From: Escherichia coli
GTDB lineage: Bacteria; Pseudomonadota; Gammaproteobacteria; Enterobacterales; Enterobacteriaceae
Assembly (NCBI RefSeq): GCF_003334255.1
Contig: NZ_QOWU01000270.1
Direction: 5' to 3' (one strand)
Length of the DNA stretch: 304 bases
The notes under the pieces were generated by a model, which saw nothing but the letters and a program-made list of their open reading frames with translations, made no database searches and was not told the DNA's origin. Shown here piece after piece: positions 1-304 of the stretch (within the stretch, counting starts at the first letter, position 1; each line of letters opens with the position of its first letter). The position numbers and the translations under genes are program-made.

Positions 1-33
1 AAGGCGGAGTTCGACCGCCTCTGGAAAAAATGA
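1..33 (+). CDS. 3' end of IS3-family orfA (transposase N-terminal DNA-binding subunit, OrfA/InsA-like); 5' part lies outside the window
   Basis: Codon phase starting at position 1 reads AAG GCG GAG TTC GAC CGC CTC TGG AAA AAA TGA = KAEFDRLWKK*, with the stop at 31-33. It ends immediately at the slippery A run and overlaps the orfB start, as expected for an IS3-family orfA. The C-terminal peptide fits my recollection of IS629 OrfA. Confidence 0.8.
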   Translation, partial: KAEFDRLWKK

Positions 34-35
34 TG
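24..35 (+). promoter_or_regulatory. Putative programmed -1 ribosomal frameshift site (G AAA AAA in the orfA frame) with the orfA stop and orfB start overlapping as ATGA
   Basis: orfA-frame codons TGG AAA AAA TGA (22-33). tRNA-Lys on AAA 28-30 can re-pair on AAA 27-29, after which the next codon is ATG 30-32 in the orfB frame. The stop codon directly 3' of the slippery codon is a known pause enhancer. The orfB frame has no stop upstream within the window. The exact slip position is inferred. Confidence 0.6.
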
Positions 36-304
36 CCACTGCTGGATAAGCTGCGTGAGCAGTACGGGGTCGGACCGCTATGCAGCGAACTGCATATTGC
101 CCCGTCAACGTATTACCACTGTCAGCAACAGCGACATCATCCGGATAAACGCAGTGCCCGTGCGCAGCGCGATGACTGGCTGAAGAAAGAGATACAGCGC
201 GTATACGATGAGAATCATCAGGTATACGGTGTGCGTAAAGTCTGGCGTCAGTTGTTACGGGAAGGAATCAGAGTGGCCAGATGCACTGTGGCACGTCTCA
301 TGGC
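30..304 (+). CDS. 5' part of IS3-family orfB (DDE transposase catalytic subunit; N-terminal linker and HTH_21-like region only), continuing beyond the window
   Basis: Uninterrupted open frame from ATG at 30-32 (second in-frame ATG at 33-35) to the window end: 91 complete codons, checked codon by codon. This frame is also open upstream to position 3, consistent with entry by -1 frameshift from orfA. The DDE catalytic residues would lie downstream of this window. Confidence 0.9.
   Translation, partial: MMPLLDKLREQYGVGPLCSELHIAPSTYYHCQQQRHHPDKRSARAQRDDWLKKEIQRVYDENHQVYGVRKVWRQLLREGIRVARCTVARLM

Follow-up and report, generated by a model that had tools for sequence, protein, structure and literature searches.

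A 304-nt Escherichia coli sequence with a complete ALIL frameshift-stimulating pseudoknot, very probably the orfA/orfB junction of an IS629 isoform

The ALIL (apical loop-internal loop) pseudoknot, a stimulator of programmed -1 frameshifting, was reportedly first described by Mazauric et al. in 2008, in the Journal of Biological Chemistry (283:20421), as the frameshift stimulator of IS3411. Stimulation of frameshifting by ALIL has been reported for this element (cited in PMC5009743), and IS3411 and at least 27 other IS elements carry the same apical-loop/internal-loop arrangement that we find in the DNA studied here (PMC5009743). IS3411 and IS1203 are in turn recognised as isoforms of IS629, the subtypes of which lie 4-5% apart (PMC3271280), and OrfAB has been described as the active transposase of IS1203v/IS629 (bioRxiv 10.1101/2023.06.07.543989). 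In this study we have analysed a 304-nt stretch of E. coli DNA, hereafter the window, and we conclude with high confidence that it is the orfA/orfB junction region of an isoform of IS629, a 1310-bp insertion sequence of the IS3 family, in which OrfAB would be made by slippage at a U-rich site stimulated by an ALIL pseudoknot. The window is not coding sequence alone, as its positions 1-104 are a complete ALIL frameshift-stimulating pseudoknot, an element that the sequence-only reading of this DNA had not mentioned.

By megablast against 5,426 complete E. coli genomes, the window matches 22,928 places in 3,597 genomes, with a median of 3 and a maximum of 51 matches per genome; 17,293 of these matches are chromosomal and 5,635 lie on plasmids, and the top match extends over the full length at 99.7% identity (E = 2e-155). 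Matches are also present in 2,964 plasmid records of PLSDB, with the genera given as Escherichia (2,670), Shigella (158), Salmonella (74) and Klebsiella (36), and in 170 records of the phage collection, nearly all of them Stx-converting phages. The annotation at the matched places reads 'IS3 family transposase', 'IS629 transposase OrfA/OrfB' or 'insertion sequence: IS3 family IS629'. Identity to the window is 99.7% for the copies in E. coli G6/7, which are the best E. coli match, 99.0% for a locus named by PGAP 'IS3-like element IS629 family transposase', 98.7% for the annotated IS629 mobile_element in LC567824 (Stx phage type) and 96.7% for the PGAP 'IS1203'. In LC567824 (our L002), the authors' mobile_element 'insertion sequence: IS3 family IS629' occupies 1653-2962 (1310 bp) with a target-site duplication and contains OrfA at 1707-2033 and OrfB at 2030-2920; the window aligns to 2001-2304, wholly internal to the element. 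These results bear out the sequence-only reading on several points. It had called the window IS629-type and IS3-family, for which both the 98.7-99.7% nucleotide identity to annotated copies and the matches to NCBIfam transpos_IS3 and Pfam HTH_21 speak; it had placed the window entirely inside the IS element, where we find it at nt 349-652 of 1310 in LC567824; and it had described such elements as multi-copy and resident in prophages and plasmids, as our megablast matches to O157-type Stx phages, E. coli and Shigella plasmids and E. coli chromosomes confirm, in agreement with PMC3271280. The best BLAST matches do not lie outside the IS3 family, the result that reading had offered as grounds for rejecting its assignment.

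Two partly overlapping consecutive open reading frames in phases 0 and -1, as expected of the IS3 family, are present in the window (Table 1). The annotated orfB ATG at 30-32 (OrfB CDS start at L002 2030, window 30) overlaps the orfA stop codon as ATGA, and the 27-nt stretch at 3-29 is read in both frames, giving in frame 3 the OrfAB linker GGVRPPLEK. The full frame-3 translation of the window, open from 3 to 302, is GGVRPPLEKMMPLLDKLREQYGVGPLCSELHIAPSTYYHCQQQRHHPDKRSARAQRDDWLKKEIQRVYDENHQVYGVRKVWRQLLREGIRVARCTVARLM, and contains ...EKMMPLLDKLREQYG... within it. The match to NF033516 'IS3 family transposase' scores 74.6 bits (E = 8e-21), which falls under the whole-protein cut-off of 160 bits because, of the roughly 404 residues of the protein, the window holds only 100, a quarter. 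In the reference full-length OrfAB the domains HTH_Tnp_1, HTH_21 and rve occupy residues 1-87, 155-212 and 235-331, respectively, and the window therefore sits between the OrfA DNA-binding domain and the catalytic core. Three short ORFs, 55-183(+), 80-148(+) and 105-218(-), were rejected as genes, being out-of-frame by-products of the orfB coding region, and neither a sigma-70-like promoter nor an intrinsic terminator was found within the window.

Table 1. Coordinates of the features of the 304-nt window.
Feature	Position	Strand	Details and basis
Internal IS629-type (IS3 family) segment	1..304	+	nt 349-652 of the 1310-bp element; nucleotide identity to annotated copies
orfA 3' end (frame 1)	1..33	+	codons KAEFDRLWKK and TGA stop at 31-33; translation; annotated OrfA CDS end L002 2033 = window 33
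orfB frame (frame 3, -1 relative to orfA), open throughout	3..304	+	translation; NCBIfam NF033516 transpos_IS3, E = 8e-21
HTH_21 (HTH-like) domain of OrfB/OrfAB, first three quarters	168..302	+	Pfam PF13276, E = 6.9e-15, frame-3 residues 56-100, model 2-47 of 60
ALIL (apical loop-internal loop) pseudoknot, programmed -1 frameshift stimulator	1..104	+	Rfam RF01497, 97.0 bits, E = 3.8e-26, model 14-117
SL1	3..19	+	stem 3-7 (GGCGG)/15-19 (CCGCC), apical loop 8-14 (AGUUCGA); Rfam consensus structure, centroid fold
SL2	65..104	+	outer stem 65-69/100-104, internal loop 70-75 (UCGGAC), stems 76-77/98-99 and 79-85/90-96, apical loop 86-89; Rfam consensus structure, centroid fold
Pseudoknot (kissing) helix	9..75	+	SL1 loop 9-14 (GUUCGA) with SL2 internal loop 70-75 (UCGGAC); six pairs, one G.U; read from sequence
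A6 run directly before orfA stop (G_AAA_AAA_UGA), possible secondary slip site	25..30	+	not conserved outside the IS629/IS1203/Edwardsiella clade

The window contains the two stem-loops in full, together with the whole 6-bp pairing of loop with internal loop. The match to RF01497 passes the gathering threshold of 50 bits despite its 5' truncation; it sets in at model position 14, downstream of 13 unpaired positions that include the slippery motif, and the full-length match in the reference copy reaches 120 bits. RefSeq labels the same stretch 'AL1L pseudoknot' in every top match, and an Rfam scan of the window revealed no family besides RF01497 on either strand.

The pseudoknot is also supported by covariation among related junctions. 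The IS1203 junction, a 95% variant, and elements of Edwardsiella (73% identical) and Sodalis (67% identical) all match RF01497, at 89-121 bits. When species-representative genomes were scanned for the SL1 pattern AGGCGGNGNNCGACCGCC, at least 120 stretches were returned, most of them chance matches in GC-rich genomes, and among the matches listed about 14 are real IS3-type junctions. The usable ones come from records labelled Xanthomonadaceae, Acinetobacter, Gemmatimonadota, Rhizobium and Nitrosomonas, together with L091, L111 and L122; four others (L025, L052, L079 and L120), in which the SL2 region has diverged, were omitted from the alignment, an omission that favours the structure. In the resulting gap-free alignment of 14 sequences (13 distinct), 93.2% of the cells form standard pairs, as against 32-46% in slid controls with the 3' partners shifted by 1-3 columns, and eight pairs change on both sides, including the pseudoknot pair 10-74, which is C-G in 9 sequences and U-A in the IS629 clade. 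Over the 13 distinct sequences, 97.4% of the cells are paired in the pseudoknot helix; the SL2 outer helix is 95.4% paired with 2 compensatory pairs and the inner helix 85.5% paired with 5. The SL1 stem is paired in 100% of cells over the same 13 sequences, but this invariance is uninformative, because the search pattern fixed the stem. Folded as a single sequence, positions 1-110 are not exceptional against shuffles (z = -1.5), a comparison made with nested-fold energies that leave pseudoknots unscored, and the minimum free energy model of this segment turns the pseudoknot pairing into a nested helix.

Positions 10-29 and 83-102 of the window match exactly the qPCR primers published for an 'ALIL small RNA', with a 93-bp amplicon (PMC12370729). 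This 'ALIL small RNA' was detected in outer-membrane vesicles of hlyF-positive STEC (PMC12370729), and the vesicle signal may come from no separate small RNA but from the mRNA or DNA of the IS629 transposase.

How far the integrity of the window speaks for a complete mobile copy of IS629 needs to be weighed against the reading that it derives from a truncated or otherwise dead remnant, which we consider doubtful but worth taking seriously. The 304 bases show no indel, both of the frames used are free of premature stops, and every pseudoknot pair is preserved; the orfA tail, the -1 frame open from 3 and the HTH_21 segment are all intact, and every amino-acid state of the window is common to at least one intact annotated copy. 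The claim of the sequence-only reading that this portion is intact, with neither a frameshift nor a stop beyond that of orfA, thus agrees with the frame translations and with the zero indels against the references. On the other hand, four of the nine IS629-type copies that we fetched are defective: L006 matches over only 290 of the 304 window bases and has no transposase annotation, L005 has a premature stop in orfB, L129 is annotated as truncated and frameshifted, and L131 carries the substitution C12T. Completeness and activity of the present copy would depend as well on parts that, as the earlier reading had correctly placed them, lie outside the window. In the reference element, these are the 25-bp terminal inverted repeats (TGAACCGCCCCGGG..., TGAACC...GGTTCA), the CTGG target duplication and the rve (DDE) domain, which starts at residue 235 of OrfAB, about 100 nt past the window end; by the same layout, the left inverted repeat TGAACCGCCCCGGGAATCCTGGAGA of an intact copy would fall 348 nt before window position 1. 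The ends of IS3-family elements read 5'-TG...CA-3', and the family duplicates 3-4 bp of its target. Since the fused transposase most likely enters the orfB frame just upstream of the window, a copy should be called intact only when this frame is open from position 3, and not merely from the ATG at 30, and in the window it is.

Several of the fetched copies deserve mention on their own account. In the Shigella sonnei 53G plasmid A (NC_016833; L131, 1501-1804), C12T converts the -1-frame codon CGA to TGA in the OrfAB linker and breaks pair 12-72, and the copy has no transposase entry in the PLSDB gene table; judging from its sequence, a copy can be inactivated by a single base change within the overlap that spares orfA and the orfB ATG. 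The E. coli ATCC 43896 plasmid NZ_CP024279 (L005, 404-2704), an ETEC plasmid, has a decayed IS629-type copy between sta2, for a heat-stable enterotoxin, and cfaA, for the CFA/I pilus chaperone; this copy, at 95.1% identity to the window, has an early stop in the orfB frame and AAAAAG as its A run. In the E. coli O6:H16 plasmid NZ_CP024277 (L129, 1207-3304), about 670 bp separate a copy of IS629, truncated and frameshifted by annotation, from a group II intron RT/maturase gene (ltrA) downstream of it, and the intron may have interrupted the IS629. The closest copy, with 1 mismatch, in the E. coli G6/7 chromosome NZ_CP060061 (L001, 1503-5905), splits a McrC-family gene into pieces at 1503-2654 and 3962-4102; with a frameshifted AAA ATPase gene adjoining and IS110-, IS66- and IS1-family elements flanking, the region resembles a McrBC-like restriction locus riddled with IS elements. 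E. coli G6/7 has this IS variant also beside ireA on its 99.8-kb plasmid (L003).

Conservation and annotation together make it very likely that the slip site is the tetramer U_UUU just outside the window, at the equivalent of positions -6 to -3, the last base of which is the fourth before position 1. The near-identical copies L001 and L002 carry TATTTTGCG directly before window position 1 (...GCT TAT TTT GCG), and model positions 1-13 of RF01497, 5' of SL1, have the consensus cGCuUAUUUUGCc. Within the 0/-1 overlap, U_UUY at -6 to -3, 5 nt ahead of SL1, is the sole in-frame A/U slippery motif common to 13 of 13 relatives, and the 5-nt gap fits the usual spacing of 5-8 nt between slippery motif and structure (PMC4066793); the supplements of that paper mention neither IS3411 nor IS629. 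NCBI records hold fusions at the U site, ...AYF/CEGGVRPPLEKMM... (the slash marks the junction), on 394 contigs in the case of IS1203 and on 258 in that of O157-type IS629; this junction can also be written as ...AYF-CEGGVRPPLEKMMPLL... and as AYF/CEGGVRPPLEK, and a U-site OrfAB junction peptide would contain AYFCEGGVRPPLEK, with LWKKMMPLLDK as its A-run counterpart. Where IS629 has its tetramer, distant IS3 elements with an ALIL structure carry heptamers, the canonical U_UUU_UUC in Acinetobacter pecorum (L031, about 5718-5837) and G_UUU_UUC in L091 (about 4549-4668), and thus the slip motif can be a tetramer or a heptamer, with SL1 and the kissing loop near-invariant.

The other candidate for the shift lies inside the window, at the A6 run (UGG AAA AAA UGA, 25-33), where tRNA-Lys would slip from AAA 28-30 to 27-29 during slow decoding of UGA and produce the junction LWKK/MMPLL. 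The run with its adjacent stop (UGA, or UAA in Edwardsiella) does occur in IS629, IS1203 and the Edwardsiella elements, a ...LWKK/MMPLL... fusion is deposited at NCBI for IS1203 only (158 contigs), and a shift at either site yields a 404-aa product. However, the motif, either A6 or, in one variant, AAAAAG, is missing in 9 of the 13 ALIL-bearing relatives, all of which keep U_UUY upstream of SL1 and have no alternative slip motif, and the Rfam consensus is unconserved at this place (AAgaaaUGA). By the time a ribosome reached 25-30 it would have melted SL1 (3-19), leaving no ALIL pseudoknot to act at the A run; SL2 begins 35 nt downstream, well beyond the usual 5-8 nt, and G_AAA_AAA is not a canonical X_XXZ_ZZN heptamer. 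Moreover, O157-type IS629 is on record at NCBI with the U-site fusion but without an A-run fusion. For these reasons we judge the A6 run to be probably not the shift site, and a shift there to be very unlikely. The two fused transposases on record for the same DNA mean that the frameshift site is inconsistently annotated in public protein records. The IS629/IS1203 clade might have two -1 shift sites, the ALIL-stimulated U_UUU and a clade-specific 'shifty stop' AAA AAA UGA (25-33), an idea to which we give a slender chance. If it were true, there would be two OrfAB isoforms with different 11-residue linkers, CEGGVRPPLEK and AKAEFDRLWKK, possibly differing in activity or regulation.

Against five intact or near-intact references we find substitutions only and zero indels: 1 difference from the closest copies, on the chromosome and plasmid of E. 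coli G6/7 (position 40, with L instead of Q), 2 from a Shigella boydii plasmid copy, 3 from the PGAP 'IS3-like element IS629 family transposase' locus, 4 from the O157-type IS629 in L002 (212, 218 and 266, synonymous in orfB, and 219, with Q instead of K) and 10 from the PGAP 'IS1203'. In ISfinder practice, copies with more than about 90% DNA identity are the same IS. The window is counted as an IS629 isoform by any reasonable threshold, because its identities lie inside the 4-5% spread of the subtypes (PMC3271280). Complete E. coli genomes, PLSDB plasmids and the phage collection hold no 100% identical copy of the window, its discriminating 70-mer (201-270) has no exact match in IMG/VR viral contigs, and none of the collections searched yielded the combination of T40 with G212, T218, C219 and A266; from its sequence, this combination appears to be made up of states of the E. 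coli G6/7-type and O157-type variants. That the window might belong to another IS3-family element merely resembling IS629, or match by chance or low complexity, is a reading that the missing identical copy and the missing 70-mer could be taken to favour, and it is already refuted, with next to no probability left, by the full-length match at E = 2e-155, by the 1-4 substitutions that separate the window from named IS629 copies and the 10 that separate it from IS1203, and by a divergence far inside the spread of the recognised IS629 subtypes (PMC3271280).

With the upstream U_UUU tetramer as the preferred slip site, we propose the following mechanism. The mRNA of the element would encode OrfA in frame 0 and, in frame -1, OrfB carrying HTH_21 and the DDE/rve catalytic core, and the OrfAB fusion, as the active transposase, would be made when a fraction of the ribosomes slip back one base. 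Slippage would most likely take place on the U_UUU tetramer (0-frame UAU UUU GCG), which ends 4 nt before the first base of the window, and would be stimulated by the structure filling window positions 3-104, with SL1 5 nt past the motif, SL2 45 nt past SL1, and the loop pairing with the internal loop. Ribosomes that do not slip would terminate at the TGA at 31-33 and release OrfA, and those that do would read 3-29 as GGVRPPLEK and continue into MMPLLDKL...; the resulting OrfAB would then act in copy-out/paste-in transposition through the terminal inverted repeats outside the window. Of this scheme, our data show the identity of the element, its frames, the covariation-supported structure and the conserved slip motif of the relatives; the site actually used, the efficiency of slippage and any completeness or activity of this particular copy are inferred.

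The feature is already known in every respect, and the sole addition of this study is its precise anatomy, a complete ALIL pseudoknot with the slip site very likely just upstream. The discovery value is little, as few insertion sequences of E. coli O157:H7 and Shigella are better catalogued than IS629, and RefSeq already annotates its frameshift pseudoknot, for which Rfam has a curated family. The results are of use mainly for annotation. A suitable label for such a stretch is 'IS629 orfA/orfB junction + ALIL pseudoknot', and any verdict on intactness should take in the -1 frame all the way from the slip site rather than start at the orfB ATG, as the C12T copy of Shigella sonnei illustrates.

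Compared with IS629 of Shigella sonnei and E. coli O157:H7, IS1203 and IS3411, the window shares the orfA stop, the ATGA overlap, the orfB frame, the HTH_21 segment and the ALIL element, and it differs from IS629 and IS1203 copies by point substitutions only. Like the ALIL family RF01497 and IS3411, it has SL1, SL2 and the pairing between apical loop and internal loop, with a spacing between SL1 and SL2 of 45 nt, at the lower end of the published range of 44-104 nt (PMC5009743). Its kissing helix, GUUCGA/UCGGAC, departs from the Rfam consensus GCUCGA/UCGAGC by one compensatory change of C-G to U-A and one change of U-A to U-G. The frameshift signals of IS911 and IS3 follow the same logic, with orfA in frame 0, orfB in frame -1 and OrfAB made via -1 frameshifting stimulated by a 3' RNA structure. 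However, IS911 and IS3 slip on A_AAA_AAG and are stimulated by a three-way junction or an H-type pseudoknot, whereas the element represented by the window would slip on a U_UUU tetramer under the influence of a long-range loop/internal-loop pseudoknot.
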